A stretch of 64,000 nt of DNA from Prosthecomicrobium sp. (GCA_048497495.1 JAFHCF010000159.1:20173-84172), one strand, 5' to 3'; positions 29,977-48,344 are shown, counted from the stretch's first letter. The notes: generated from the letters alone by a model not told the origin. Program-made: numbers and translations.

Positions 29977-31206
29977 ATGCCGAAAGTGGTCGCCAAGCTC
30001 AACGATCGACAGGTGAAGGCCATCAAGGCCGATGGGCTCCACGCCTGCGGCGAAGGGCTCTATCTCCAAATCAAGGGCTCGGCGCGCGGCTGGATCTTCC
30101 GCTATCAGACGGCAGGCAAGCGCCGCGACATGGGCTTGGGCTCGGCTTCCGAAGTCGGCCTCAAGGAAGCCCGCGAAGCCATCGACGAGGCGAAGCGCGC
30201 CATTCGCGCCGGCCTTGATCCCGTCGACGCCCGCCGAGCCGAACGCCAGACGATCCCGACCTTCGGGAAATTCGCCGACGATCTCGTCGAGACCCTGGAA
30301 AAGGGCTTCCGCAACGACAAGCATCGGTATCAATGGAAGCAGACGCTCGGCGACGCCTATTGCGCGGCAATCCGGGGGAAGCTCGTCTCCGACATCACCA
30401 CCGCCGACGTGCTCGAAGTGCTCAAACCCGTCTGGCAAACGAAACAGGAAACCGCCTCGCGCCTTCGCGGTCGGATCGAGAAGGTATTGGACGCGGCCAA
30501 GGCGTGCGGCTTCCGTTCGGGCGAGAATCCGGCGGCATGGCGCGGACACCTCGCGAACCTTCTCCCCAAACGCCAGAAGCTCGCACGCGGGCATCAACCG
30601 GCCCTGCCCTACGATGGCGTTCCGGCACTTGTCGCCCGTCTCAGGGCACGCGATGCGGTCGCGGCGCGTGCGCTCGAATTCCTCATTCTCACGGCGACGC
30701 GGGCAGGCGAGGTCTTCGGCGCGACATGGGGCGAGTTCGACACCGCCGCCGAGGTGTGGACCATCCCCGCGAACCGTATGAAAGCGGGCAAGGAACACCG
30801 CGTCCCCCTGACGACGCGCGCCCTGGCGATCGTCGCTGAGATGGCCGCGCTTCGGACGAAGGGCAACGATACCGCCACCTTCGTGTTCCCTGGCGGGCGG
30901 GCCGGTCGCCCCCTCTCGAATATGGCGTTCAAGCAATTGCTCGTCCGCATGGGCGAGACGGGCTTCGTCCCGCACGGTTTCCGCTCGTCGTTCCGCGACT
31001 GGTGCGGCGAATGCACACCGTTCCCGCGCGAGGTCGCGGAAGCCGCTCTCGCGCACATGGTCGGCGACGAGGTGGAACGAGCCTACCGGCGCGGCGATGC
31101 GTTGGAGAAGCGCCGGAAGCTCATGGACGCATGGGCCGGTTTCATCGAACCCAAGGCGGCGAACGTCGTGACGCTCAAGCCGCTACGGAAAACTCCGGTC
31201 TCGTGA
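29977..31206 (+). CDS. int: Tyrosine recombinase, P4-type integrase (DUF4102 N-terminal domain)
   Basis: KLNDRQVKAIKADGLHACGEGLYLQIKGSARGWIFRYQ..GKRRDMGLG (Arm/DUF4102 type). Catalytic region ...LILTATRAGEV...HRVPL...PHGFRSSFRDW...ALAHMVGDEVERAYRRGD. Confidence 0.95.
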   Translation: MPKVVAKLNDRQVKAIKADGLHACGEGLYLQIKGSARGWIFRYQTAGKRRDMGLGSASEVGLKEAREAIDEAKRAIRAGLDPVDARRAERQTIPTFGKFADDLVETLEKGFRNDKHRYQWKQTLGDAYCAAIRGKLVSDITTADVLEVLKPVWQTKQETASRLRGRIEKVLDAAKACGFRSGENPAAWRGHLANLLPKRQKLARGHQPALPYDGVPALVARLRARDAVAARALEFLILTATRAGEVFGATWGEFDTAAEVWTIPANRMKAGKEHRVPLTTRALAIVAEMAALRTKGNDTATFVFPGGRAGRPLSNMAFKQLLVRMGETGFVPHGFRSSFRDWCGECTPFPREVAEAALAHMVGDEVERAYRRGDALEKRRKLMDAWAGFIEPKAANVVTLKPLRKTPVS

Positions 31207-31947: not shown

Positions 31948-32349
31948 ATGAGCAAGTTCGGCAAGGAAATGATCGAAAGCGCGGGGGAAGCCCTGGCCAT
32001 GGCGGGCGGCGGTTCCGAGCGTGCTCGCCTCGCACCCTTCGATGCCGCCGACTATCTCGACAGCGACGAGACCGCCGCCGAATACCTCGCCGTGAGCATC
32101 GAAGACGGCGATCCGGCAGTGGTTGCGAACGCGGTTCGGACCATCATGCGAGCACGCGGCGAGGCGATGACCGACGTTCTCGACCGGCTAATCGTCATCG
32201 CCGAGGATCGGCATGCTGCCGGGGAACGCGCTCGCCAAGTCGAGCGTGACCACTCGGGGTCAGCCGGCCATCAGGCGACGGCCTCGGCCTTTGGACCTTG
32301 CTCGGCAAGGATTCGCATGACATCCGCTGCCGGCTTGGGCCGACTGTAA
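31948..32349 (+). pseudogene. Antidote-like relic: N-terminal half of an addiction-module antidote without its HTH, running into the convergent GGDEF-EAL gene
   Basis: MSKFGKEMIESAGEALAMAGGGSERARLAPFDAADYLDSDETAAEYLAVSIEDGDPAVVANAVRTIMRARG parallels the antidote at 40629 (KPFDSAEHLRTDEDVAAYLEAAFEDGDPALVAHALGVIARTRG). It then diverges and lacks the GNP..HTH part. Its N-terminus is paralogous to ORF 40931. Confidence 0.4.
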
Positions 32350-34520
32350 AGGTAGCCTTGGGCTTCGGTGCAGCCTTCCGCCGTCACGCTCGCGAGCTGC
32401 TCGCCCGTCTCCACCCCTTCGGCGGTCGTCGTGATCCCCAGGCTGCTGCTCAACCCGACGACGGCGCGCACGATCGCCAAGCTGTCCTGCTTTCCAGGCA
32501 AATCGCGGATGAAAGACTGGTCGATTTTGATCTTGTCGAACGGGAAGCTGCGAAGATAGCCGAGCGACGAATATCCGGTGCCGAAATCGTCCATCGCAAT
32601 CTTGATGCCGAGATCGCGGAGTTGATGAAGAATGGCGAAAGCCCCCTCATTCTCCTGCACCAGCACCATTTCAGTGATCTCCAGCTCCAGCCGGGTCGCC
32701 GGCAGACCGGAGGTCGCCAGCGCATTGATGACCATCGGCACCAGATTCCGGCTCTTGAACTGGGCTGGGGAGAGGTTCACCGCGATCGTCACATGCGTCG
32801 GCCAGCGCGCGGCTTCGGTACAGGCCTGCCGCAACACCCATTCGCCTATCTGCACGATGAGACCGGTTTCTTCCGCGACCGGAATGAATTCGAGCGGCGG
32901 AATCATGCCGCGCTCTGGATGATGCCAGCGGATGAGCGCTTCGAAGCTGGTGATTTGACTGCTTTTGACGTCGATGATGGGTTGATAGTAAAGCTCGAAC
33001 TCGCCATTCACGATTGCCTTGCGAAGATCGAGTTCGAGGGCGCGGCGCGTCTGCATGCGGGCGTCCATTGCGATTTCGAAGAAGCGGTAGACGCCGCCGC
33101 CATCGGCTTTGGCGCGGTAGAGCGCCAAATCCGCGTTCTTCATGAGCACATCCGGCTCGCTACTGTCGTTCGGCGCGATCGCGATACCGACGCTTGCCCC
33201 GACCACCACCTGATGGCCATCCAGATCATACGGCGCTCCAACGACCTCGATGAGACGCATAGCAAGCGCCGTGGCATCCGCCGCCTGCTCCGACGGCACC
33301 TGCACGATGGCGAATTCGTCGCCGCCTAACCGGGCCACAATGTCTTCGCCTCGAACGCAACTGCGCATTCGCTCGGCAGCCGCCTTCAGCAAACGATCGC
33401 CGATCGGATGACCGAGCGTATCGTTGACGGCCTTGAAATGATCGAGATCGAGGCTGTGAACCGCGATGGTTTCGGAGCGACGCAAATGGCTGAGGGACGC
33501 CTCCACCCGCTCATAGAACGTCACGCGGTTCGGCAAGTCCGTGAGCGCATCGTAATGCGCCAGATGCCTGATCCGTTCCTCGGCCTTCAGGCGTTCGGTG
33601 ATATCCTCGAAGGTGGCGACGAAGCCGCCTTCCTGCATAGGCCGAAATGAAATCGCGATGTTGCGGCCGTCGGTCAGACGCTGGATGAACGAGCCTGCCT
33701 TGCGCTCGCGAAAAATCAGCTCGCGCAACGCAAGCGTATTCTCTGGTTCCGCATCCTTGCTCTTGCTGGAGGATTGCAACCGCGCCATTAACTGCTGGGT
33801 GGTCATGCCCGGTACGATACTTTCAACCGGCAGACCGTACATCTCCGTAAAGCGCCGATTGCAAATGACGAGCTTGCCATAAGCGTCGAACATGCAAAGG
33901 CCCTGCGACATGTTCATCAGCGCGGAGTCGAAACGCTCATTCTGCACATTCAATTGCGCGTTTCTGGACTCGATCGTCTCCTTGGCTGCCTCCAGCGCGC
34001 CCACGGTGCTATCCAGCACCTTGAGCGGAAACACGCGCACGGCGAAGTAGACGCCGACGCCGAAGATGGCGCTCAACAACGCGGCGAAACCCGTTTCCAA
34101 CAGCAGCGGATGAAGGCTGCTCGAGCCTTCGACCCGGCCGATCACAGAACCCGATACGACAATCGGATTGGCGCGGGTCATCACCGGCGCGGTCAAGGCC
34201 GGCCCGGCGGCGGCGATGACGGCGGTATCGTCACGGACACTGAGGGAGAAGTTTTTGCCATCGGCGGCGCCGAGTTCGATCAGTTCGGCGATGCGGGGCG
34301 CCTGATACTGCCAAAGCGACTGATGCATATAGATGTATTTGGCGACACGCGCGGCGGCCAGCTTGGATTTGTAATCCACCTCATGCGAGAGGTTCGCATA
34401 CGCCACATAAAAATAGCCACAGGGAATCGCTATAAAAATCGTCAGGGTTACGATCATGCCGATCGTGCCGACGAGCGTGCGCAGGCGAAAATTCCACATG
34501 GCTCGTCTCCTATTCGCCAA
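32271..34520 (-). CDS. Membrane sensor diguanylate cyclase/phosphodiesterase (TM - periplasmic region - PAS - GGDEF - EAL)
   Basis: GGDEF domain (LTDLPNR...RLGGDEFAIV) and EAL domain (FEALIRW...QPIID...EITE...KIAMDDFGTGYSSL...KIDQSF), with two TM segments at the N-terminus. Confidence 0.9.
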   Translation of the reverse strand: MANRRRAMWNFRLRTLVGTIGMIVTLTIFIAIPCGYFYVAYANLSHEVDYKSKLAAARVAKYIYMHQSLWQYQAPRIAELIELGAADGKNFSLSVRDDTAVIAAAGPALTAPVMTRANPIVVSGSVIGRVEGSSSLHPLLLETGFAALLSAIFGVGVYFAVRVFPLKVLDSTVGALEAAKETIESRNAQLNVQNERFDSALMNMSQGLCMFDAYGKLVICNRRFTEMYGLPVESIVPGMTTQQLMARLQSSSKSKDAEPENTLALRELIFRERKAGSFIQRLTDGRNIAISFRPMQEGGFVATFEDITERLKAEERIRHLAHYDALTDLPNRVTFYERVEASLSHLRRSETIAVHSLDLDHFKAVNDTLGHPIGDRLLKAAAERMRSCVRGEDIVARLGGDEFAIVQVPSEQAADATALAMRLIEVVGAPYDLDGHQVVVGASVGIAIAPNDSSEPDVLMKNADLALYRAKADGGGVYRFFEIAMDARMQTRRALELDLRKAIVNGEFELYYQPIIDVKSSQITSFEALIRWHHPERGMIPPLEFIPVAEETGLIVQIGEWVLRQACTEAARWPTHVTIAVNLSPAQFKSRNLVPMVINALATSGLPATRLELEITEMVLVQENEGAFAILHQLRDLGIKIAMDDFGTGYSSLGYLRSFPFDKIKIDQSFIRDLPGKQDSLAIVRAVVGLSSSLGITTTAEGVETGEQLASVTAEGCTEAQGYLYSRPKPAADVMRILAEQGPKAEAVA

Positions 34521-35328
34521 CAGGAAGGTTGCCGGTCGCCAGCAAAGCCTGGCGCCCAGCGTCCGAGCGCAGGAATGTCAGGAACTTCTCGGCGCCCGCG
34601 TTGCGACCGCGCGGAAACACCAGGTAGAAGCTCTTTTCGTGCCGGTAGGTCCCGTCGGCCAAAGTCTTGAGACTGGGCTCCACGCCGTCAATCGCAACGA
34701 AGCGCAGATTACATTTCTCGGCGACGATCTGCCCGAAGCCCGCCAGACCAATCGATCCGGGAAGGCGCTCGGCCAGATCGACATTGTCCTGATCGGTCGC
34801 CGCCACGGGAACCTCGGAGCGTTGCCGCGCCCGCGCGACCGCATCCTTCACGGCCGGGAGCGCCCGCTCGATGATCGCCGTGTCCGAATCGACCTTGGGC
34901 CGCAAAATGAGCTTGAGCGGCGTGCCATCCGCCCATTTCGGATTCTCCGCCGCGACAAGCGTGGCGATATCGTCCGTCTTAAGGCCATTGGGCTTTGGAT
35001 GCGACGTAATGAGGACCAGCGGCGTTCGCGCAAAGCGATGCGAGACGAGTAGCCCTTCCGCCAATTCGGGACTCAATGGCCGGCCCGCGACGACGACGTC
35101 GATCTTGCCGTCCACGATCGCGTGCATCGCGCCACTGGTGCCGAGGCCGACGATCACCTGCACTTCAATGCCGGTGGCGGCTTTGAACTGAGGAGCGATT
35201 TGCCGCATCGCCTCGATGATGCCGCCGGTTCCAGCCAGCCGCAGAGTCTCCGCGCCCGCGCCGTTTGCCGCCATCAGCAGAAAAGCGATCCCGACCGCAA
35301 TTGCCAATTTCGAAAATGATGCACGCAT
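34510..35328 (-). CDS. Periplasmic PstS-like (PBP_like_2) substrate-binding protein
   Basis: Signal peptide, then TLRLAGTGGIIEAMRQIAPQFKAATGIEVQVIVGLGTSGAMHAIVDGKIDV... Its stop overlaps the start of the GGDEF-EAL gene by 11 nt, suggesting a sensor/ligand-binding pair. Confidence 0.75.
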   Translation of the reverse strand: MRASFSKLAIAVGIAFLLMAANGAGAETLRLAGTGGIIEAMRQIAPQFKAATGIEVQVIVGLGTSGAMHAIVDGKIDVVVAGRPLSPELAEGLLVSHRFARTPLVLITSHPKPNGLKTDDIATLVAAENPKWADGTPLKLILRPKVDSDTAIIERALPAVKDAVARARQRSEVPVAATDQDNVDLAERLPGSIGLAGFGQIVAEKCNLRFVAIDGVEPSLKTLADGTYRHEKSFYLVFPRGRNAGAEKFLTFLRSDAGRQALLATGNLPVGE

Positions 35329-37128: not shown

Positions 37129-38151
37129 TCAAGCTCTGGCTACCTGAACCGAAACTCTTGCAACATTGTAGAGTGTGACCGCTCCACCCACAGCTTTGGC
37201 TGGATCGAATAGCGCCAAGTTGATGCCATCACTCACAGAACTACGATAGACAACGCCATCGAAGCCGCATTTCTTGATAAACTCGCACAGATACTGACTC
37301 GGGATATAGTCGATAGCTGCGCCGGAAGGCAGTACCGGGCGCGTGAGTTCCTCACCGAGCCGCTCGAGAAAGGGAAGGTCGGCGCGAAGTTGTCCGATGT
37401 TGCTAGCGTCCGAGAGGTCGAAGGGCGACACGACTTTGCGCGGATTTCGCAGATCGACCGCGCTAATCTCGGGAATTGCGAAGTCGGCAACGCAGGCAAC
37501 CTCTCCCGTGTGAGGCCGCACCTCCGCTGTCGCTGTCTCCGGCGTTGAGCCAAGGTAGAGGTAAGGAATGCCGGCGGGGTTCGCCCGGCCGTGGGAGGCC
37601 TGACGCTTCGGCGGCGCGCCCATCTCCTCGATCAGATAATCGTCGTCACCCGAGCGGATTCGCGCACGAAACCACCGCCATGGTACATCCTTGATCAGCA
37701 GCATTGGGAGCAGTTGACGTAGGCGATCCTCGTCAATTTCTGTGTCCAGAAACCAACGGTTTCGGTACATCATCTCATCGCGCAAAGTCTCCCACCGCAC
37801 TAGACCTTCGCTTCGATAGACGGAGGACGGAGAAAAAGGCTTCCGCACGACTTCGCCGTCATCGAGGATCTCGCCAAGTAGCTCCTTGGCATGTGCCACG
37901 TCCATCAGGGGATGAGTAAAAAGTTGCCAATCCTCCTTCATCCAATCGACGAGCGACTTACCGTCCGGAGCGGGCTCATAGACGTTGGCGAGAAGTTCGA
38001 AATAGGTGCGGAGCGCGATCGGCTCAAGCAGCGCAACATTCTTCGTTCCGCAAAAATCGCAGGTGCCCTGTTTGGCCCCGAGGAATGAGAAGATATTGTT
38101 CCGCAACGCGCGGTCATCAAAGCATTCCGGGCAACAAAACTTCATAGCCAT
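37129..38151 (-). CDS. Zinc-ribbon + RES-domain protein (third gene of the low-GC operon)
   Basis: N-terminal CPEC-x20-CDFC. C-terminal RES signature: HGRANPAGIPYLYLGSTPETATAEVRPH ... DGVVYRSSVSDGINLALFDP. Start preferred at 38151 (7 nt after the upstream stop, GAGG RBS); alternative is 38178. Confidence 0.8.
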   Translation of the reverse strand: MAMKFCCPECFDDRALRNNIFSFLGAKQGTCDFCGTKNVALLEPIALRTYFELLANVYEPAPDGKSLVDWMKEDWQLFTHPLMDVAHAKELLGEILDDGEVVRKPFSPSSVYRSEGLVRWETLRDEMMYRNRWFLDTEIDEDRLRQLLPMLLIKDVPWRWFRARIRSGDDDYLIEEMGAPPKRQASHGRANPAGIPYLYLGSTPETATAEVRPHTGEVACVADFAIPEISAVDLRNPRKVVSPFDLSDASNIGQLRADLPFLERLGEELTRPVLPSGAAIDYIPSQYLCEFIKKCGFDGVVYRSSVSDGINLALFDPAKAVGGAVTLYNVARVSVQVARA

Positions 38152-38158
38152 CTTGGCC

Positions 38159-39094
38159 TCAGGTGAGATAAGCCGCAAGTGTCTCGATATGATGCCTCAT
38201 CGAGAGCTTCTTCACATGTCCCAACCCGGGAAAATGACCCTTGGCATGTAATTCTCGGAACTCATTGATCGCAGTAGTTTCGTAAATTTTCGACGTCCCA
38301 CTATCAATCTTCTTGATCAATTTAGTAAGAGCTTGGCTAAACTTTCCGGCGGGGTTGACCGGCGTATCATTTGTGCTAGAGACGAAGTGATAAATGAACA
38401 TTACATCGTCTTGATCGGGGTCAATAAAAGTAATATGGATCGCGACTGCGTAAGCAGGACCACCGCCCTCCGAATAGTTGTCGCCGACAATAAGAAAATC
38501 GCCAAAACCCTGCATGCCCCGATCCCCATAGGTAACATGAAGGTCAGAAAACTCCTCTTTCTCCGGATAGTCTGCGTTGCGCTGTCGTTTGAAACCGTCG
38601 CCCACCAATATCCGAGTGCTGCTCTCGAAATGTTTCCGATAAAGGATGCGATCATGATCTTCGATGAAGACGTGCTTTGAGCCGGCAAGGTCCACGCCTA
38701 GATATTCAGCTAATGATTTTGGTGTCGTGAAGCCGGAGTGCACGAAGGTGGGGTTGTGATCCTTATGTGCGTCAAAGTAACGAGTAGCCTCACCAATCGA
38801 CACTCGGTTGCTAAGTAAAATACCAGCCGAGATCGAATCGTTTCCGAGATACCCCTCCCGAAGCAGTTCGGAGATGCTGGTTCCGTCCTCACCGTGATCG
38901 CCGTGATAGGGGTTGACGATTACGATCGCTCTGCCTTTCGCGGCGCAGATTGCCTTCAACGTCCGTTCAAGACCTCCGAGCGCTTCTTTGACCGGCTCGA
39001 TAATGGGCACAAATCCCGACTGGGCGAGCAGTCCCGCCGACTCGCGAATTGTTATCAATTCAAACTGTTTTCCGCGAAAATAGGGATGATACAT
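38159..39094 (-). CDS. sce7725-like family protein, function unknown
   Basis: 311 aa, MYHPYFRGKQFELITIRESAGLL.... From memory the N-terminus and size fit the NCBIfam 'sce7725 family', which pairs with 'sce7726 family'. AT-rich codon usage. Confidence 0.6.
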   Translation of the reverse strand: MYHPYFRGKQFELITIRESAGLLAQSGFVPIIEPVKEALGGLERTLKAICAAKGRAIVIVNPYHGDHGEDGTSISELLREGYLGNDSISAGILLSNRVSIGEATRYFDAHKDHNPTFVHSGFTTPKSLAEYLGVDLAGSKHVFIEDHDRILYRKHFESSTRILVGDGFKRQRNADYPEKEEFSDLHVTYGDRGMQGFGDFLIVGDNYSEGGGPAYAVAIHITFIDPDQDDVMFIYHFVSSTNDTPVNPAGKFSQALTKLIKKIDSGTSKIYETTAINEFRELHAKGHFPGLGHVKKLSMRHHIETLAAYLT

Positions 39095-39100
39095 GGTGTT

Positions 39101-39988
39101 CTATGCCCAGGTCATTGCTGCCGAGAGAGGCACCGAAATGGACTGTACGAGGCGACTATGATCAGACCGTCGCAGCGGAATGGACAGCGCGGCGGCATGA
39201 AGTGAGCTGGGAAGCTGATCGACGAGAGCGCTTAATGGTGCAAGGGTGCGGGAGCGCTTCAGTGTGCTCACCATCTCACGGTGCAACTCGGCGGGTTTCA
39301 GCGCGGTGAACAGCTCGCGCAGGACGCCGTGCCGTTGGGTATTGGGAACGTCTGGCACCTTGACGCCAAGGGCATTCAGGATCGCAACTGCTTCGGTTGA
39401 GCGAAGAGATTCCAATACCGTCAGAGGACAGATGCGATGCGGATCGTCTATCGCCTGCTGCACGACCGAGATATTGTAGCGCTTCGATAGGCACATAATC
39501 CCGACGTCGTCCGGGACCAACAGTCGAACACTATCGACATGACTCTCGCCCACGATCACGTTCACCGTCGCAAAGACGCGTTTATAATTTTCAACTTGAT
39601 TGAGCAACCTCGCAAGCGAATCGCGCTCAGATTTGATTTCATAGACGGTCGCCGTACCATTTAGGATTACCAGATCGGCTTTACATGAACCAGCTCGGAA
39701 TTCATTGAGCATTGAGGCGGTGCGAAGTGAATGTTTCCCGATCAAAATTTTATGGGTGAGCGCGGCCCGATAGACATATTCGTCACGAAGCCCGGAGATC
39801 TTGAGTATCGCAAATGCTGAATCGAATGCATCTCCGACGGTCGCCCCGGCGCCACACCGGCTCGCGATGCGTGTCAGATCAATCAAGCGCTTGAAGAGCG
39901 CAGAGCGTCCATTCTTGGCCAGTTCACGGAACACAGCCGAAGAAAATAGGCGCGTCAGCGCTGACAGCTCGGTTGCACTCGGATTCAC
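39101..39988 (-). CDS. sce7726-like family protein with a PD-(D/E)xK nuclease-type motif
   Basis: 295 aa. EYVYRAALTHKILIGKHSLRTASMLNEFRAGSCKADLVILNGTATVYEIKSERDSLARLLNQVENY contains D-x11-E-x-K. GTG start with a GGGGGAG RBS. Confidence 0.6.
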   Translation of the reverse strand: MNPSATELSALTRLFSSAVFRELAKNGRSALFKRLIDLTRIASRCGAGATVGDAFDSAFAILKISGLRDEYVYRAALTHKILIGKHSLRTASMLNEFRAGSCKADLVILNGTATVYEIKSERDSLARLLNQVENYKRVFATVNVIVGESHVDSVRLLVPDDVGIMCLSKRYNISVVQQAIDDPHRICPLTVLESLRSTEAVAILNALGVKVPDVPNTQRHGVLRELFTALKPAELHREMVSTLKRSRTLAPLSALVDQLPSSLHAAALSIPLRRSDHSRLVQSISVPLSAAMTWA

Positions 39989-40294
39989 AGCTCCCCCGAT
40001 TCAGCGCGTTGAATGCGATTTCTCGCGCATTTATCGCACAATCCTCGTTAAAGAGAACCGAGCATTTTGCCGGATCAATGCCTCCAGGCCGGGGTTGGTC
40101 TCCATATGTGAGAGAACCCGTGAGACTGTCGAGACGCATTGCTGCTTGGCTCACAATCGGCCAAGGAGTTAATGTCAAAAAGGCTGTTCTCTTTCCGCGC
40201 AAAACGGAATCCACCCGAAACCGGTGTACCCAGTAAGCCTCACGTGCTCGTTCGCATTCCCGGCAGATCCTGACGTGCTCACAGTCGGTCGCCC

Positions 40295-40618
40295 TTGTCA
40301 TTTTGTCCATTAAATGGGACACTTCTTCATGGTCGAAGTCCGGTAGCGGAACGCTTCGAAGCTTGGCTCTCCGGCCCTGCCGATCTTCGGGCACGGGCTC
40401 GCATCTTGGTGCGGATCGACCGCCTCGCACTCGGGAACGCGGGAGATGCGAAGCCGGTCGGGCGTGGTGTCTCGGAACTGCGGATCGACTACGGGCCGGG
40501 ATACCGGGTCTATTTCGTTCGACGTGGCGAGGCGTTGATCATCCTGCTTGCCGGCGGCGACAAGCGCACGCAGGCGCGGGACATCGAAACCGCGCTCGCC
40601 ATGGTGGCGGAACTCTGA
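40295..40618 (+). CDS. Addiction-module killer toxin, copy 2, native N-terminus destroyed (possibly a pseudogene)
   Basis: ERFEAWLSGPADLRARARILVRIDRLALGNAGDAKPVGRGVSELRIDYGPGYRVYFVRRGEALIILLAGGDKRTQARDIE is intact. However, the native ATG (40329) reads MVEVR-stop and is out of frame by a 1-nt deletion. Only an upstream TTG (40295) opens the frame. Confidence 0.55.
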   Translation: MSFCPLNGTLLHGRSPVAERFEAWLSGPADLRARARILVRIDRLALGNAGDAKPVGRGVSELRIDYGPGYRVYFVRRGEALIILLAGGDKRTQARDIETALAMVAEL

Positions 40619-40628
40619 GGGACGAGAC

Positions 40629-40934
40629 ATGGCACCGCTGGAAACCAAGCCCTTCGATTCCGCCGAGCATCTTCGGACCGACGAAGACGTTGCCGCCTAT
40701 CTCGAAGCCGCGTTCGAAGACGGCGATCCGGCGCTCGTCGCTCATGCACTCGGCGTGATCGCCCGCACGCGCGGCATGACCAAGCTCGCCCGAGAAACCG
40801 GCATCGGCCGGCAGAGCCTCTATGTCGCGCTCTCCGAAGGCGGCAACCCGACGCTGGCGAATTTCATGGCGATCACCAAGGCGCTCGGGCTTGCCGTCCG
40901 GGTGGAGCCCATCCAGCACGAAGCGGCGGAATGA
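40629..40934 (+). CDS. Addiction-module antidote protein (HTH)
   Basis: MAPLETKPFDSAEHLRTDEDVAAYLEAAFEDGDPALVAHALGVIARTRGMTKLARETGIGRQSLYVALSEGGNPTLANFMAITKALGL is the canonical antidote pattern. Confidence 0.85.
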   Translation: MAPLETKPFDSAEHLRTDEDVAAYLEAAFEDGDPALVAHALGVIARTRGMTKLARETGIGRQSLYVALSEGGNPTLANFMAITKALGLAVRVEPIQHEAAE

Positions 40935-41776
40935 GCATGACCAAGCTCGGAACGGGCCTGATCGAGAGCGCGAGGGACGCCCTGACCATGGCGGGCGATG
41001 GTTCCAATCCTGCCCGCCTCACCCCCTTCGATGCCGCCGGCAACATCGACAGTGGTGAGACCGCTGCCGAGGGTGTACCGCCATTGATGGACAACAACGA
41101 ACGTCTGAATATCTTTGAACAATCGCATCAAGGTTTCCGCGATGTGGTTTATCAATTGGCCGACATAGCCGGCATTGCCCATTCTAACGTGAGCGAAATT
41201 GGCTACATTATCAGCTTACTCAATAGCGCGTTGATTGGTTCAATAGTCATTGAGCCCGGCGACGACGGGATAATGAGCGGATGGCAGAAGCCGTACACTG
41301 CAGTGAAATACAATAAAAAGCTGGATATTATGGAGAACACTGTCAGATTTATGAAAGTGACGCAGAAATTGCTTTCCGATGATGCAATGCACTATGCCAT
41401 TTCAAACGAGATTCGCCGCAAGCGATACCCGGTAAAAACAAAAGATGAACTTGGGGAGCGCTACTTTGAGATCTCAAATGATCTAGACCGCTTACGTCGC
41501 GATATGGAGCCAATCGCGTCAGCACTTAAATCCATAGCTAAAACGGCAAGAAAGAAGACACACAAGGGGCGAGAACCCGAGTGGAACAAGTATCGAATTG
41601 TCTGGGAAGCTGCGGAATTTTTCGATGACGCGAGCTGCCACAAGCCCTCGCCTGCCAAGACGTCGCCATTCACGGCATTCGTAGAGCAAATTTTCACGTT
41701 CGCATTCAAGACGAAGAAGCACCCCGATGTGTCGAGGATCATCCGGGCGGCCTTGAGGGAGCGCCCGTTACGTTAA
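40931..41776 (+). CDS. Chimeric ORF: 52 GC-rich codons paralogous to ORF 31948, fused in frame to a low-GC orphan (229 aa from the internal ATG at 41087)
   Basis: MSMTKLGTGLIESARDALTMAGDGSNPARLTPFDAA parallels MSKFGKEMIESAGEALAMAGGGSERARLAPFDAA. From ~41087 the DNA turns AT-rich and I recognise no family. ATGA overlap with the antidote stop. Confidence 0.5.
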   Translation: MSMTKLGTGLIESARDALTMAGDGSNPARLTPFDAAGNIDSGETAAEGVPPLMDNNERLNIFEQSHQGFRDVVYQLADIAGIAHSNVSEIGYIISLLNSALIGSIVIEPGDDGIMSGWQKPYTAVKYNKKLDIMENTVRFMKVTQKLLSDDAMHYAISNEIRRKRYPVKTKDELGERYFEISNDLDRLRRDMEPIASALKSIAKTARKKTHKGREPEWNKYRIVWEAAEFFDDASCHKPSPAKTSPFTAFVEQIFTFAFKTKKHPDVSRIIRAALRERPLR

Positions 41777-41830: not shown

Positions 41831-42049
41831 ATGGACACCTCCGACCGATGGAGTGCGCCCATGCACATACCTCCCGAAATCCTCGCCTACCGCATCAACG
41901 ACGCCTGCCGTGCTCTCAGTCTCGGACGTTCGACGCTCTACAAGCTGATCAACGAAGGCAAGCTCAAGTCGATCACCATCGCCGGCCGGACCTTGATCCC
42001 ACGTTCCGAGATCGAGCGCCTCATTTCGGAGGCGTCGGCCGATGCGTGA
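41831..42049 (+). CDS. AlpA/excisionase-type HTH DNA-binding protein
   Basis: EILAYRINDACRALSLGRSTLYKLINEGKLKSITIAGRTLIPRSEIERLI is the MerR-superfamily excisionase/AlpA pattern. Confidence 0.8.
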   Translation: MDTSDRWSAPMHIPPEILAYRINDACRALSLGRSTLYKLINEGKLKSITIAGRTLIPRSEIERLISEASADA

Positions 42050-42302
42050 TCGGTTCTCCCGCGAGAATTCGCAACGCCCCTGTGCTCCGATCGCGTGGCG
42101 CCGCCGCTCGCTCGACCGCCTCACCAAGGCGATCGACGACTTCAGCCTGAACACGTTGGACGCGATCCGGGCGAGCGGCTTCGACGAAGCCGTTGCCCTG
42201 CGTGCCGTCACCGAAGGGCGAAAGGCGATCTCCGCCGTTCTGGTGAGCACGGTCGAACCCCAGATGATCGAGGATGCGACGGAGGCCGGCAATGCAAGCT
42301 GA
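42042..42302 (+). CDS. Small hypothetical protein, translationally coupled between the AlpA-like and DUF3631 genes
   Basis: 8-nt overlap upstream and 11-nt overlap downstream. No recognisable domain. Confidence 0.45.
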   Translation: MRDRFSRENSQRPCAPIAWRRRSLDRLTKAIDDFSLNTLDAIRASGFDEAVALRAVTEGRKAISAVLVSTVEPQMIEDATEAGNAS

Positions 42303-43653
42303 TCGCGCCACCGTTCACCCCCTGCCCGTGCCATCCCCGGCGCCCAAGAAGCGCAAAGCCGAGCCGAAGGCCGCCGGGTCGATCCTCTTCCCCGAGGTCG
42401 AGCCATGGCCGGGGCCGCTCGACGTCGGGACGCTCCTGAACGACATACGGGCGACGATCCGTCGCCACATCGTCTGTCCGACCGAGGCCACGATCGCCGC
42501 CGCCCTGTGGATCGCCTTCACTTGGGTGATCGACTTCGTTCAAGTCGCCCCACTCGCCGTCATCACCGCGCCGGAAAAACGGTGCGGCAAGTCACAGTTT
42601 CTCGATCTCATCGGCCGCATGGTCCGAAAGCCGCTCGTCGCCTCGGGGATCACATCCGCCGCGACGTTCCGGGTGATCGAAGCCCACGCCCCGACCCTGC
42701 TGATCGACGAAGCCGACACCTTCATGAAGGACAATGAAGGCCTTCGCGGGGTGATCAACAGTGGCCATACGCGCCAGAGCGCCTTCGTGATCCGAACCGT
42801 CGGCGACACCCACGAACCGCGTCAATTCTCGACTTGGGGAGCCAAGGCGATTTCGGGGATCGGCAACTTGCCGGCGACGATCATGGATCGGGCGATCATC
42901 CTCGAACTTCGGCGGAAGCTGCCGAGCGAGACCGTCGAACGGCTGCGTCACGCCGACCCCGGCCACTTCGACATGTTGGCGCGGAAGCTCGCCCGCTTCG
43001 CCGAATTGCATGGCGAAGAGATCCGCCGGTCGCGGCCTCGTCTCCCCGACGCCCTGAACGATCGCGCCCAAGACAATTGGGACCCCCTTCTCGCCATCGC
43101 CGACGTTGCCGGCGGGGCATGGCCCGACCTCGCCCGCCGCGTCGCTCTGAAGCTCTCGGCGGTCGACGAGGCGGTGGTCTCGACCGGCGCCGAACTCCTC
43201 TCCGACATTCGCGCCGCCTTCGACCAAGGCGGGCGGGATCGTCTCACCTCCGCCGACCTCATCGCCCGACTCTGCGACGACGAAGAGGCGGCTTGGGCGA
43301 CCTACGATCGCGGCCGTCCTCTCTCGCCGCGCCAACTCGGGAAGAGGCTCGGCGAATACCGCATCACCTCGCGCAAGATCCGCTTCGGCGTGACCACCGC
43401 CCAAGGCTTCGAACGGTCGCAATTCGAAGATGTCTGGTTGCGTTATCTCGACGTCTGCCCAACGCCCCCCGACTCTTCCGGAACGCCGGAACAATCAAAT
43501 GAAATCAATGAATTGATGTTCCGGATGCCGGATCATGTTCCGGAGCACTCGAGCCCTTCCGGAACAGGTAAGCCATTGAAATCAGACGATTGTTCCGGTG
43601 TTCCGGATGGAAGCCCCCTTGCGGGCGAAACCGAATGGGAGGAAGAGCTTTGA
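42292..43653 (+). CDS. DUF3631 domain protein (P4-like island replication/primase-associated module)
   Basis: LFPEVEPWPGPLDVGTLLNDI...APLAVITAPEKRCGKSQFLDLIG...PTLLIDEADTFMKDNEGLRGVINSGHTR...FSTWGAKAISGIGNLPATIMDRAIILELRRK is the DUF3631 pattern. Confidence 0.8.
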   Translation: MQADRATVHPLPVPSPAPKKRKAEPKAAGSILFPEVEPWPGPLDVGTLLNDIRATIRRHIVCPTEATIAAALWIAFTWVIDFVQVAPLAVITAPEKRCGKSQFLDLIGRMVRKPLVASGITSAATFRVIEAHAPTLLIDEADTFMKDNEGLRGVINSGHTRQSAFVIRTVGDTHEPRQFSTWGAKAISGIGNLPATIMDRAIILELRRKLPSETVERLRHADPGHFDMLARKLARFAELHGEEIRRSRPRLPDALNDRAQDNWDPLLAIADVAGGAWPDLARRVALKLSAVDEAVVSTGAELLSDIRAAFDQGGRDRLTSADLIARLCDDEEAAWATYDRGRPLSPRQLGKRLGEYRITSRKIRFGVTTAQGFERSQFEDVWLRYLDVCPTPPDSSGTPEQSNEINELMFRMPDHVPEHSSPSGTGKPLKSDDCSGVPDGSPLAGETEWEEEL

Positions 43654-44766: not shown

Positions 44767-47682
44767 TCATCGCCCCGCCGTCGCCCGTTCCCGATTGAGG
44801 TCGAGAAGCCGCGCCAAGGCGTCTTCCTCGCCGATGTCCTCCGGCCATCCGTAGGCAGCCGCGACCGCCGCGTCGAGATCGCGGTGGGCATTGTCGAGCC
44901 ACGTCGGCCGCTCGTTGTAGAGGTTGGTCAAGGTCCGCTTCTTGAGGATCGCCGCCGCCGCGTCGTCGACGGGTAGGATGCGATCGGGATAGCCCGGCAC
45001 CACCTCGGGCACCCGCTCGACCAGATCGGCCGGATTGAGCCAAGCCTCACGCAACTCGTTCAACCGCTTCGCCGCCGCCGCGATGCGGATGGCGCGCGGA
45101 TCGTCGGCATAGTCGACGGCGGGGATGTTCGGGGTGAGGCCTTCCGGGAAGGGGAAAGTCTCTAAACACGTCTCGGTGTTATAGGTCGGATCATTCCCGA
45201 CCCCGTGCCATGAGCATGTCGCCAAGCTCCAGGCATTGTGAATTTGGCTTTGAAGAACGCCAAAGAAAAAGTCATCGTCCCGCGCGAACGCATAAAGTCG
45301 AGAGTCGGGCACGACTGCCGCGCTCAACCAGACGAACAGCCGGTGTTTCGCTACCCGGGTTGTCACCAGAAAGCGCGCCTGTGGGTCCTTGGCGAGCGTT
45401 TGTGGAAGGGCACGAAGCGCGCCCCACATCTTTGGACGCGGCTCTACATGCCGCCACCAATAGCGACGATATTGCTCGCGCCGGTTTTCTTCGCGCAAAG
45501 GTTTCACATGATTCGCGACATAGGCGAACGGGTCTTGAAAAAGGGCAGCTTGGGCTTCGTCGATTTGCCAGCCAAAATCCACGATCCACTTATCCGCTGA
45601 ACGTCGCGTCACGTCCATTCCGTTCATCCACGGCCTGAGAACATCCGAGTTCGGCCGCCCATTCGGATTCAGCGGCAGCGCGAGCCATTCCCGCGCAAGT
45701 TCGCCTGAAATGTCGAACGGGCCGCCCTTTGTGTCCCCCATGAAGGCAACGTCCGAATTCTCGCGAAGACATGTAGCTGTGGTGAAGTCGCTTGCTCCGC
45801 CCGTCAGGTCAGAATTCACGCGAGGGGCGGGCAAGCCGTCAAGATGGACGCCGGCCGAAGGCGGAGTGGCCGCAAAGCATATCAGCGAGACCCGCACTGC
45901 CGCACCATTGAGAACCCAAGGCTCATCGGGCCACGCATCATAGATGATGCCCTCAGCCACGATGGGCTCAAGCGTCTTCCGGTTTGCACCGCCGCGCATG
46001 GAATTGGTCGCGACGAAGCCCGCACGCGCCGTGCTGCCGCCCGCGATGGCCTCCCACCCCTTGACGAACCAATAGGCGACGAAGTCCGCCTCGGGCGGGA
46101 CGCGGCCTGAGAAGGCGGTGAACAGCTTATCGACGTAGTCCGACCCGAAACCATTCCGCAGCAGCTTGCCACCAAGGAAAGGTGGGTTCCCCACGATCGC
46201 GTCGGCCTCGGGCCACACAGCCTCGGTGCCGTCCTCGTTCAGCAGCGCATCGCGACACTCGATATTGTCGAGCGGCTTCAAGATCGGGTTGCGCGAGACG
46301 TCGAAGCCGTTGCGCAGCATCCATTGGATTTCGCCGACCCACACCGACACCCGCGCCAGTTCGGCGGCATAGGGGTTGATCTCGATCCCCTTGACCGACG
46401 ACGGGCCGATCGAGGGAAACTCGCGCTGGAAGCCGAGCGCTTCCGCTTCGATGTTGACCCGGTGTTCGAGATCCTTCAGCGCCAACAGCGCCAGATAGAG
46501 GAAGTTGCCCGAGCCGCAGGCCGGGTCGAGAACCTTGAACGCCCTGAGGCGATCGAGGAAGCCGATCAACAGCGCCTTCGCCTCGCCATGCGCCTTGGTC
46601 TTGGCGGATGGCGACTTCGCCGCCTTCTCCTTGTCGAGCCCGGCGACGATCGCCGCCTTGGTCGTCTCCCATTCGGCGAGCCATGGCCGATTGATCACCG
46701 GATCGATGATCAACATGATCTTGTCGCGGTCGGTGTAGTGCGCGCCGAGCTGCGAGCGCTTGTCGGGGTCGAGCCCGCGCTCGAACAGCGTGCCGAGGAT
46801 CGACGGGTCGATCTCCTCCCACTCCGCATTCGCCGCCGCGAGTGCGATGGCGATGTCGTCCTTGTCGAGCGGAAGCGCGGTGTCGTCGTCGAACAGCCCG
46901 CCGTTGAACCAATCGATCGTCTCCCACGCCGCCTCGCCGCCGGCCTTCATCGCCTTGAACAGTTCCGACGCCCGCTTGGCGAACTGCTCCGGCTGTTTCG
47001 CCGTGCTCATCAGCATCTTGGTGAAGAGCTTGTTGGGTAGCAACTTCACGTCTTCGGCGAACATGCAGAAGATCAGCCGATTGACGAAATGCGCGACCGT
47101 TTCCGCCTGGTGCCCGCGCGCGCGGAGACGTTGCGCCAGAGCCGCGAATTGCGCCGCCACTTCCTCGGTGAGCTTCTGACGGGTCTTCTGCGGACGCAGC
47201 TTCTCGGGGTCGGAGAGAACCCATTTGAGTTTCTGGCGCGTCTCCGCGTCCTTGAGGTCGTCGAGCGCGAACTCGTGAACCTGCGAAACCGTGTTGGTCC
47301 AATTGGTGTGGATGCGGAACCGATCGAGATCGCAGACGACGAGAAGCGGCGGATTCTCCAAGGCCAGCGCATATTGCTGGAGTTGCGCGAAAGCCTTGTC
47401 GAGGCTCTTGGTCTTGCCCTTGTACTCCCATCCGAAGTGACCGCGCTTCCAGACGTCGGCCCATCCCTCGCCGCCGGTCGTCTTCGAGGCGCCCTTCTCG
47501 AAGGCGTACCACTCGCCCTTCGGATCGGCCTCGGTGGGGGAGGGCTCGCCGAGCATCGCGCACAGGTCGTTGAAGTGCGATTGCGCCGCCGACCGCTCCT
47601 TCAACTCGACGGCCTTCCACTTGGCGATGAAGGCTTCAGGCGTCACGGCGCGCACCCCGGTTCGATTCAGTGCACCGAGCAT
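44767..47682 (-). CDS. MmeI-like Type IIL/IIG restriction-modification enzyme candidate (N-terminal D..ExK nuclease motif + gamma-class N6-adenine methyltransferase)
   Basis: N-terminus FIAKWKAVELKERSAAQSHFNDLCAMLG...GWADVWKRGHFGWEYKGKTKSLDKAFAQLQQY (D-x..-E-x-K). MTase motif I VLDPACGSGNFLY and motif IV GNPPFLGG. ~970 aa single polypeptide. Start set at MLGALN (47682). Confidence 0.8.
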   Translation of the reverse strand: MLGALNRTGVRAVTPEAFIAKWKAVELKERSAAQSHFNDLCAMLGEPSPTEADPKGEWYAFEKGASKTTGGEGWADVWKRGHFGWEYKGKTKSLDKAFAQLQQYALALENPPLLVVCDLDRFRIHTNWTNTVSQVHEFALDDLKDAETRQKLKWVLSDPEKLRPQKTRQKLTEEVAAQFAALAQRLRARGHQAETVAHFVNRLIFCMFAEDVKLLPNKLFTKMLMSTAKQPEQFAKRASELFKAMKAGGEAAWETIDWFNGGLFDDDTALPLDKDDIAIALAAANAEWEEIDPSILGTLFERGLDPDKRSQLGAHYTDRDKIMLIIDPVINRPWLAEWETTKAAIVAGLDKEKAAKSPSAKTKAHGEAKALLIGFLDRLRAFKVLDPACGSGNFLYLALLALKDLEHRVNIEAEALGFQREFPSIGPSSVKGIEINPYAAELARVSVWVGEIQWMLRNGFDVSRNPILKPLDNIECRDALLNEDGTEAVWPEADAIVGNPPFLGGKLLRNGFGSDYVDKLFTAFSGRVPPEADFVAYWFVKGWEAIAGGSTARAGFVATNSMRGGANRKTLEPIVAEGIIYDAWPDEPWVLNGAAVRVSLICFAATPPSAGVHLDGLPAPRVNSDLTGGASDFTTATCLRENSDVAFMGDTKGGPFDISGELAREWLALPLNPNGRPNSDVLRPWMNGMDVTRRSADKWIVDFGWQIDEAQAALFQDPFAYVANHVKPLREENRREQYRRYWWRHVEPRPKMWGALRALPQTLAKDPQARFLVTTRVAKHRLFVWLSAAVVPDSRLYAFARDDDFFFGVLQSQIHNAWSLATCSWHGVGNDPTYNTETCLETFPFPEGLTPNIPAVDYADDPRAIRIAAAAKRLNELREAWLNPADLVERVPEVVPGYPDRILPVDDAAAAILKKRTLTNLYNERPTWLDNAHRDLDAAVAAAYGWPEDIGEEDALARLLDLNRERATAGR

Positions 47683-48190
47683 AGCCGAGTGGGTTCGAAC
47701 GAAAAGAGCGAACCGCCTGTCGTTGTGGATTGGGCAGGCATCAATCAAAAGGAGGTCGCCCGTCCGATCCGCGCGCGACCGGGAAGATCCCCGCGAGCAT
47801 GTGCGCGCCGAAATCGACACCGCGAAATCAAGAGAACCGGATCGGCGCTGGCGAAGCGATGGGCGGCAACACGACCGCATGGCGCGTGATGGTTTCCACG
47901 GCGGTTACCAGCGAGGTTCCCACCATGGCGCGGCCGTCACGCTCGAAGTGACTGGTGACGATCCGATGGTTCGCGGTACGCAGCCGGTACGCACCCCTGG
48001 CCGCAAGTTTCAGTTTCAGACCGGTTTCAGCGCCCAACGCACGCGCGAAGTGGTCCGGACGCCCGCTGCGGGTCCCTTCACCGATTTAGCGCCAGTCTCT
48101 TCGCGAACCACGCGCGAGGGCATCGGCAACGAATTCCGCCTTTGCGACCGTCCGCCTTCGTCCGTCCCGAGTTGCCCCGGTCCGTGTCGC

Positions 48191-48264: not shown

Positions 48265-48282
48265 GAATTGGTGGAGCTGAGG
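48265..48282. repeat. Island att core, tRNA-proximal copy
   Basis: GAATTGGTGGAGCTGAGG. Positions 48269-48282 are the 3' 14 nt of tRNA-Ala. Confidence 0.85.
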
Positions 48283-48344
48283 GGAATCGAACCCCTGACC
48301 TCTGCAGTGCGATTGCAGCGCTCTCCCATCTGAGCTACAGCCCC
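48269..48344 (-). tRNA. tRNA-Ala (anticodon CGC)
   Basis: Reverse complement: GGGGCTGTAGCTCAGATGGGAGAGCGCTGCAATCGCACTGCAGAGGTCAGGGGTTCGATTCCCCTCAGCTCCACCA. 76 nt cloverleaf with the G3:U70 Ala identity pair, anticodon loop AT-CGC-AC, GGTTCGATTCC T-arm and an encoded CCA. Confidence 0.95.

Follow-up and report, generated by a model that had tools for sequence, protein, structure and literature searches.

The DNA analysed here is a stretch of 64,000 nucleotides (nt) from Prosthecomicrobium sp. (GCA_048497495.1 JAFHCF010000159.1:20173-84172), referred to below as the window, and our subject is a tightly packed three-gene operon on its minus strand that encodes, in this order, an sce7726-family protein (gene 1, 39988-39101), an sce7725-family protein (gene 2, 39094-38159) and a zinc-ribbon RES protein (gene 3, 38151-37129). 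Judged from sequence comparison across bacteria, the three genes make up a mobile, self-contained cassette that was horizontally acquired. We read it as an abortive-infection (Abi) cassette in which a two-gene core of the type found in the Gop-beta-cII system of satellite phage P4 would be coupled to an effector of the aRES type standing in Gop's place, a reading to which we give a probability of about 0.55; an anti-phage role of some kind appears likely. A first-pass annotation, made from the sequence alone, had proposed an undescribed defence system at this position. Each component in fact has a precedent, in aRES, in Gop-beta-cII and in a protein architecture noted in 2013, while the combination of the three genes is indeed undescribed in the literature that we found and in PADLOC.

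A linked trio on mobile elements

One genome per GTDB species was scanned with an sce7725 profile, which gave 577 confirmed relatives, and the loci of the best 80 of these (55-74% identical) were compared. The sce7726, sce7725 and RES genes lie in that order on one strand in 78 of the 80 loci; one of the remaining two ends at a contig edge, and the other, in Microbacterium sp. (L080:4891-6936), is the sole full-length locus among the 80 closest without RES after sce7725. The RES gene, expected by the first-pass annotation to be a recurrent neighbour of the pair, is thus a near-obligate one within this clade. The junctions between the genes measure -8 to +15 nt, with the gene 2 and gene 3 frames overlapping in 15 of 70 loci, and the pairwise identities of the three proteins over 71 loci are closely correlated (r = 0.84-0.85). 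Besides the trio itself, no flanking gene family is common to more than four loci. The three genes are still found together at 30-34% sce7725 identity, on a Moraxella plasmid, a human-gut contig and a viral contig, the last of these trios adjoining a type I HsdR gene.

The hosts of the trio, from seven phyla, include members of the Alpha-, Beta- and Gammaproteobacteria, Actinomycetota, Acidobacteriota, Verrucomicrobiota, Nitrospinota and Hydrogenedentota, with a cross-phylum sequence identity of 55-80% among the trio homologues; the sce7725 protein of the window shares 55-65% identity with homologues from phyla as far apart as Actinomycetota and Pseudomonadota. Within a single species the distribution is patchy, the trio being present in 19 of 5426 complete Escherichia coli genomes. 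Its carriers include plasmids, a Salmonella integrative and conjugative element (ICE), a reported Pseudomonas aeruginosa integrative and mobilisable element (IME), islands and prophage-like contigs. Split or shortened sce7725 or RES frames were seen at L126:4758-6758 and L154:3810-4837 and in the loci L012, L034 and L058, which suggests that the toxin gene of some hosts is frameshifted or decaying. We found no paper characterising sce7725/sce7726 or reporting the trio as a system; the mentions found are incidental, and one of them lists all three genes within an IME.

The genes flanking the trio loci fit a defence-island setting. Among the 112 nearest flanking open reading frames (ORFs), restriction enzymes of types III and IV are represented in the PADLOC matches at E of 1e-8 or better, as are DRT, GajB, KwaB, AbiD, mad3, PbeA and others. 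The chromosome of E. coli MS 115-1 (L156:9740-22837) carries the trio (NZ_CP146665.1:4105196-4108064) in a mobilisable integrase/relaxase island with IS3 insertions, with a KwaB-like gene at a distance of 1.4 kb upstream of the trio and a truncated type I HsdR gene of the EcoR124 type downstream.

Gene 3 combines a zinc ribbon, an NTD1-like region and a RES domain

Gene 3 (340 amino acids, aa), the predicted NAD+ phosphorylase effector, matches the Pfam RES family (PF08808) with 66.4 bits (E = 4e-18) against a gathering threshold of 23.2 bits, and its RES domain spans aa 176-318 (37198..37626, minus strand). In an alignment with 20 diverse homologues, reaching down to 27% identity, the RES positions G188-R189, P192, Y197, Y199, E210, R212, Y282, Q286 and S304-S305 are invariant and N191 is nearly so; R162 and R164 do not vary either. 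The same holds for the four cysteines of the zinc ribbon (C7-x2-C10-x20-C31-x2-C34; 38050..38133, minus strand). The RES call, the four cysteines and the R, E and S residues singled out by the first-pass annotation all survive this comparison.

Between ribbon and RES domain lies a helical region resembling HEPN/RES-NTD1 (about aa 26-170, 37642..38076, minus strand, limits approximate). The corresponding Pfam family, PF18870 (HEPN/RES N-terminal domain 1), is matched by 8 of the 20 family members, at best with E = 6.1e-5, and covers aa 27-166 of the homologue L153 and aa 26-128 of the homologue L082, at positions equivalent to those in gene 3, whereas gene 3 of the window itself gave no HMMER match to PF18870 at E up to 10. 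On the strength of the four invariant cysteines, the PF18870 matches in relatives and the PF08808 match, we assign to gene 3 the probable architecture zinc ribbon, NTD1, RES. By BLASTP gene 3 is co-linear over its full length with a stand-alone NTD1+RES plasmid protein of 457 aa (24% identity, E = 6e-17), which carries RES together with a PF18870 match that is weak and stays below threshold (E = 0.004). Homologues of gene 3 are labelled 'RES family NAD+ phosphorylase' by NCBI, a label that is an annotation and not evidence of activity. Searched at E up to 10, Pfam returned nothing but RES for gene 3 and PADLOC returned no model, the family profile matched no solved RES structure among the PDB sequences, and BLASTP detected no similarity to the 133-aa Gop of P4.

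With the RES-Xre toxin-antitoxin (TA) pairs MbcT-MbcA (PMC6436930), PrsT-PrsA/PP_2434 and NatT-NatR (PMC11535050), gene 3 shares the RES toxin domain; their toxic activity is NAD+ degradation or phosphorolysis, and the like is predicted for gene 3. It differs from these toxins in its N-terminal zinc ribbon and NTD1 and in its partners, a nuclease-fold and a TIM-barrel-like protein, and the trio has no adjacent Xre/COG5642 antitoxin gene; no helix-turn-helix (HTH) or Xre domain was found by Pfam in either gene 1 or gene 2. An ordinary RES-Xre toxin was therefore ruled out, the Xre partner being absent and the neighbours being sce7725 and sce7726.

As to its start, the ATG at 38151, preceded by GAGG, is most likely the one used; a longer ORF opening with TTG at 38178 and overlapping gene 2 was considered, and the homologue alignment gives it no support.

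Gene 1, a P4 cII homologue with a PD-(D/E)xK-type fold

Gene 1 (295 aa, GTG start codon) belongs to the sce7726 family as the first-pass annotation had proposed, matching NCBIfam NF033832 over profile positions 1-183 of 184 with 184.3 bits (E = 2e-54), where the curated cut-off is 70 bits. It also matches the PADLOC model PDLC02989 'cll' of Gop-beta-cII (E = 4.8e-18) and, by BLASTP, P4 cII itself (E = 6e-13, 31% identity over 134 aa); the two proteins share phrog_984, and P4 cII is annotated by RefSeq as 'sce7726 family protein'. These sequence comparisons establish true homology between gene 1 and P4 cII.

In the AlphaFold2 model of gene 1 (predicted local distance difference test, pLDDT, 92.4), an alpha-beta-beta-beta-alpha-beta core is flanked by helical parts, namely an N-terminal region and a C-terminal domain. 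The core (about aa 70-177; 39458..39781, minus strand) contains the D105-x11-E117-x-K119 signature noticed in the first-pass annotation, which proved invariant in 18-39 homologues, P4 cII among them, and an alignment with P4 cII and a cII-like protein of a Pasteurella phage leaves E96, D105, N110, E117, K119, D123, R127 and Q131 unchanged. Searched with Foldseek against the PDB, the model found 3dnx best (E = 1.9e-4), followed by SfsA, the Can2 nuclease domain, NucS/EndoMS and a tRNA splicing endonuclease. Since model topology, Foldseek matches and invariant site residues agree, the PD-(D/E)xK assignment is supported at the fold level. The Pfam matches of gene 1 homologues are weak and confined to single members (MmcB-like, PDDEXK_3, Cas4), and a match of the family profile to CagY in a search of PDB sequences was treated as a coiled-coil or low-complexity artefact.

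The Pasteurella phage, Pmp11 (L088:3601-5893), has a P4-like gop/beta/cII arrangement that adjoins a temperate-phage CI repressor. A single Pfam match to the SAP domain (E = 4.2e-7) in the cII-type alignment probably belongs to the cII-like protein of Pmp11 and, if it does, would be a hint that cII-type proteins bind DNA.

Gene 2 is a barrel-like protein remotely related to P4 beta

The sce7725 assignment of gene 2 (311 aa), likewise proposed in the first-pass annotation, is firm, with 353.4 bits (E = 1.4e-105) over profile positions 1-312 of 312 of NCBIfam NF033831 and a curated cut-off of 60 bits; the family comprises 1,173 clusters when grouped at 50% identity. Gene 2 matched no Pfam or PADLOC model at E up to 10, Beta_protein (PF14350) and PADLOC beta included. 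Its AlphaFold2 model (pLDDT 96.7, predicted template modelling score 0.93) shows an alternating beta/alpha, TIM-barrel-like domain followed by a C-terminal helical bundle. Foldseek against the PDB returned generic TIM barrels only (template modelling, TM, score at most 0.42), so that no specific enzyme family can be named, and the family profile gave only noise against PDB sequences. By far the best structural match, a viral one in BFVD, is an uncharacterised 379-aa protein of Gordonia phage Powerball (A0A5J6TRS2; E = 6.6e-10, TM 0.64). The polar residues N61, H119, D166, N173, D199, H220, H236, S239, K251, K295, H301 and H302 are invariant or nearly so, and in the model they map to the ends of strands or to positions right behind them, a pattern known from barrel enzymes.

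The first-pass annotation had reported a weak impression that gene 2 resembles the beta protein of P4 Gop-beta-cII, and this became the key lead. BLASTP detects no similarity between gene 2 and P4 beta, and the link is visible by profile-profile comparison alone. The hhalign probability of the gene 2 family was 4% against a single beta sequence and 26% against a 2-sequence beta profile, rising to 78% (E = 1.8e-5) with 12 sequences and to 86% (E = 4.8e-6) with 40 sequences over 169 co-linear columns, which begin at a common YxPxLRxxxxE...P-I/L motif. Control profiles derived from beta (59 column-shuffled, 60 block-shuffled and one reversed) reached a maximum of 28.1, compared with 50.1 for the real pair. 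We regard the homology as genuine but remote, a reading strengthened by the fact that cII-type partners go with both families. Gene 2 falls short of membership in the beta family, since it has no Pfam Beta_protein match and is placed in a different PHROG from P4 beta.

Relation to described systems

Gop-beta-cII (Ghisotti 1990; Rousset et al. 2022), listed by PADLOC and DefenseFinder as 'Gop_beta_cll', is the named anti-phage system of satellite phage P4 and defends against lambda and P1; its Gop protein is toxic without beta (PMC9122126), and the system kills the cell upon expression of phage orf184 (bioRxiv 10.1101/2023.04.06.535777). The trio resembles it in having the cII component as gene 1, in the similar length of gene 2 and beta and the N-terminal position of their shared motif, in being a three-gene module with a toxic protein alongside the pair (toxicity of RES being predicted), and in occupying mobile-element hotspots beside P4-type integrases. 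The differences are as clear: Gop is absent and a 340-aa RES enzyme takes the toxin position of a 133-aa membrane protein, sce7725 misses both the Pfam Beta_protein and the PADLOC beta models, and the host range extends far beyond enterobacterial satellites. Annotating the trio as plain Gop-beta-cII was therefore rejected, as two of the three defining components (beta model, Gop) fail.

The aRES proteins (Osterman et al., January 2026, bioRxiv 10.64898/2026.01.28.702374) are 300-600 aa long and combine PF08808 with PF18870; three enterobacterial members confer phage protection on E. coli through the conversion of NAD+ into nicotinamide and ADP-ribose-1''-phosphate (ADPR-1''-phosphate), and aRES genes are stand-alone, without operonic partners. 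Gene 3 is like them in its probable NTD1 and RES two-domain architecture, a length within their range, conserved RES catalytic-type residues and a defence-island location, and by analogy the same chemistry would be expected of it. It is unlike them in being tied to two upstream genes, as the 78 of 80 loci attest, and in being about 24% identical to stand-alone enterobacterial relatives, the tested aRES sequences being compared by description only. The PF18870 shortfall of gene 3 was scored by HMMER, whereas the authors of aRES define membership by HHsearch above 80%.

The domain order assigned to gene 3 is exactly the zinc ribbon, HEPN/RES-NTD1 and RES architecture noted in 2013 by Anantharaman, Makarova, Burroughs, Koonin and Aravind, who proposed N-terminal domains of this kind as phage-sensing modules of Abi-like proteins (PMC3710099); that description concerns the protein only, and an operon with sce7725/sce7726-type genes is not reported there. 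PADLOC v2 holds no model for the trio, gene 2 or gene 3. The trio thus lies outside both named systems, because it is not stand-alone as aRES is and has neither Gop nor a beta recognisable at the hidden Markov model level.

Proposed function and alternatives

From what is known of P4 Gop-beta-cII and aRES, taken together with the anatomy of the trio, we infer an anti-phage function, NAD+ as the substrate and who restrains or triggers whom, and hence abortive infection. Gene 3 would be the effector, which on its release phosphorolyses NAD+ to nicotinamide and ADPR-1''-phosphate and so puts the infected cell into arrest. The other two genes, as homologues of P4 cII and beta, would form the control and sensor core, with RES in the position of Gop. 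By analogy with the toxicity of Gop without beta, the barrel protein sce7725 would restrain the RES toxin, and the order of sce7725 before RES with frequent overlap fits such an antitoxin-like role. The PD-(D/E)xK protein sce7726 may provide DNA or phage sensing or a regulatory input and possibly has a nuclease activity of its own; its conserved nuclease-type site suggests DNA sensing or cleavage.

Several observations weigh against this reading. Gene 2 and gene 3 of the window match no PADLOC model, and the similarity of gene 2 to beta is a distant one, confined to the N-terminal half at an hhalign probability of 86%, with a different PHROG and no Pfam Beta_protein match. The trio is co-directional (cII-like, beta-like, RES), whereas gop-beta of P4 is convergent with cII. 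RES toxins are not all directed at NAD+, as ParT modifies PRPP (phosphoribosyl pyrophosphate) synthetase. The counts of defence genes in the flanks come without a background rate, and an enrichment is therefore not claimed. Finally, NTD1+RES proteins act alone as aRES and have stand-alone relatives in our set (L101, L102, L153), and the sce7726/sce7725 pair also occurs by itself.

The alternative that holds up best is a tripartite TA or addiction module that stabilises its mobile carriers, with RES as toxin, sce7725 as antitoxin and sce7726 as regulator or third component, phage defence being incidental or absent. The RES domain is a classical toxin domain of type II TA systems (PMC6436930), and P4 gop/beta was itself originally described as a TA-like pair; the antitoxin-before-toxin order, the overlapping gene 2 and gene 3 frames and the residence of the cassette on plasmids, ICEs, IMEs and islands would suit such a module, and a HigBA-like TA module adjoins the operon in the window. 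However, the trio has neither an Xre/COG5642-type antitoxin nor the kind of small, labile protein that is usual in TA pairs, since each partner of RES is a protein of about 300 aa with enzyme-like conserved residues, and NTD1 and the zinc ribbon are sensor-type domains typical of Abi and defence proteins (PMC3710099). Defence genes are also frequent among the neighbours, and TA and Abi roles can coexist. We consider the addiction module unlikely.

Somewhat less probable in our view is that two independent systems travel together, one a stand-alone protein of the aRES type that detects phage unaided through its zinc ribbon and NTD1 and the other a two-gene sce7726/sce7725 system acting through its PD-(D/E)xK nuclease, with no dependence between them. 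This would agree with the ability of aRES NTD1+RES proteins to defend alone, and because each of the two modules also occurs without the other, they could be functionally independent. In the IMG/VR data, at least 12 loci in prophages or satellites have the pair but no RES gene. These often adjoin a CI-type repressor or a P4-type integrase, and in some cases the order is reversed; two of them (L124, L128) leave no space for a third gene. Stand-alone RES relatives occur on enterobacterial plasmids and in a phage, where a zinc-ribbon/NTD1/RES protein of 366 aa, 29% identical to gene 3 (L153:3986-5086, IMG/VR UViG_2740892495_000002), is encoded, as read from the translations, within the structural module between head-morphogenesis and scaffold/capsid-like genes and looks like a phage-borne 'moron'. 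Independent systems in a defence island, though, reshuffle much faster than the trio does, whose linkage is kept down to 30% identity and across phyla, with gaps of 0-10 nt or overlaps and matched divergence of the three proteins. The plasmid set also shows two separate kinds of RES protein, the trio type at 33-81% identity to gene 3 and the stand-alone type at 26% or less, with a gap between them. Given that pair and RES modules are also found apart, the sequence data indicate that the sce7726/sce7725 pair is the older and broader core and the RES-bearing trio one large, very successful clade of it.

Two further arrangements of the pair were encountered. The IMG/VR loci L129-L132 (about 5001-6776), in low-GC prophages, have a reversed sce7725-sce7726 pair directly 3' of a CI/LexA-like repressor and no RES. 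An Enterococcus faecium plasmid (L083:5306-7513) and a 'Listeria phage' contig (L085:6532-8937) encode a different nuclease-fold-like protein, an sce7725 protein (32% identity) and a GNAT acetyltransferase, the last in the position of RES; the first protein has 229 aa, a D...E-x-K-like motif, membership in phrog_2776 and a weak 'DNA repair' PHROG match.

A more speculative proposal, which we hold to be improbable, is that the sce7725/beta barrels are enzymes that make, destroy or sense a small molecule derived from nucleotides or NAD and that, together with the cII-type partner, they would gate interchangeable toxins, namely RES through its zinc ribbon and NTD1, Gop, and perhaps the enterococcal GNAT protein. 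A function outside genetic conflict, such as a metabolic operon related to nucleotides or NAD or a DNA-repair operon carried as island cargo, is very improbable: the enzyme-like TIM-barrel fold of sce7725 and one weak Pfam match, by which a gene 1 homologue is linked to the MmcB-like 'DNA repair' family, would speak for it, but the patchy distribution, exemplified by the E. coli count, the extreme horizontal mobility at 55-80% identity across phyla, the toxin-type RES domain, the absence of conserved metabolic neighbours and the homology to a proven phage-defence module (Gop-beta-cII) all point elsewhere.

The operon in its island

The three co-directional ORFs of the first-pass annotation are confirmed, together with its gaps of 6 nt between gene 1 and gene 2 (39100-39095) and 7 nt between gene 2 and gene 3 (38158-38152); no small ORF was found inside the operon. 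The first-pass annotation had also placed the operon in the most AT-rich DNA of the window, at 37-45% G+C. The direction was right, as the operon has 54.0% G+C while the whole window has 66.9% and flanking core DNA 69-71%, and the lowest-GC stretch of 2860 nt begins at 37551; the range given fits only 7 of the 47 60-nt lines of the operon, whose median is 53%.

A 306-nt intergenic region (39989..40294) separates gene 1 from a divergent HigB-like gene and is, from its position only, the presumed promoter and operator region of the operon; a scan for the sigma-70 consensus and for terminators gave results at chance level, this region included, and is uninformative for such a high-GC host. The divergent TA pair beyond it (40295-40934, plus strand) consists of overlapping ORFs for a Gp49/HigB-like toxin (PF05973, E = 6.4e-7) and an HTH protein of the 'addiction module antidote' type (PF21716, E = 1e-25). 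Between this pair and an AlpA-like HTH gene (41831-42049) lies an ORF of 281 aa (40931-41776, plus strand), which forms a second low-GC patch of 51% G+C and has no Pfam match. A DUF3631 gene (42274-43653) follows, and then an MmeI-like type IIG restriction-modification enzyme of 1037 aa (44767-47880, minus strand), whose N-terminal, helicase-spacer and methyltransferase domains exceed the Pfam thresholds while its target recognition and C-terminal domains remain below them, and a tRNA-Ala gene (48269-48344, minus strand). The island context proposed at the outset, with tRNA-Ala, TA module and MmeI-like enzyme, is therefore correct as regards these neighbours.

A P4-type integrase (29977-31206, plus strand; Arm-DNA-bind_3, Phage_int_M and Phage_integrase domains) lies 17 kb from the tRNA-Ala gene, and the interval contains genes of the PAS-GGDEF-EAL type (32271-34520) and of the PBP-like type (34510-35328). 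A search of the 64-kb window found no direct repeat of the tRNA-Ala 3' end that would delimit the island, and there may be two tandem islands.

Implications

The trio connects defence by NAD+ phosphorolysis, as carried out by aRES, with the Gop-beta-cII system of P4, which have so far been treated separately, and this bears on the P4 beta and cII proteins, which have had no mechanism since 1990. It indicates a modular design in which a conserved core of a nuclease-fold and a TIM-barrel-like protein is combined with swappable toxins. Natural versions in E. coli (e.g. MS 115-1) and Salmonella (e.g. S. houtenae) make the control logic directly dissectable, and the levels of NAD+ and ADPR-1''-phosphate offer an easy biochemical read-out. 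The question is also raised whether the measures that phages take against aRES (Adpp phosphatase, aRad1 inhibitors) defeat the trio as well. Should the gating of toxins by a small molecule prove true, the sce7725/beta barrels would define a new and widespread class of signal-gated abortive infection, which would account for P4 beta and cII.

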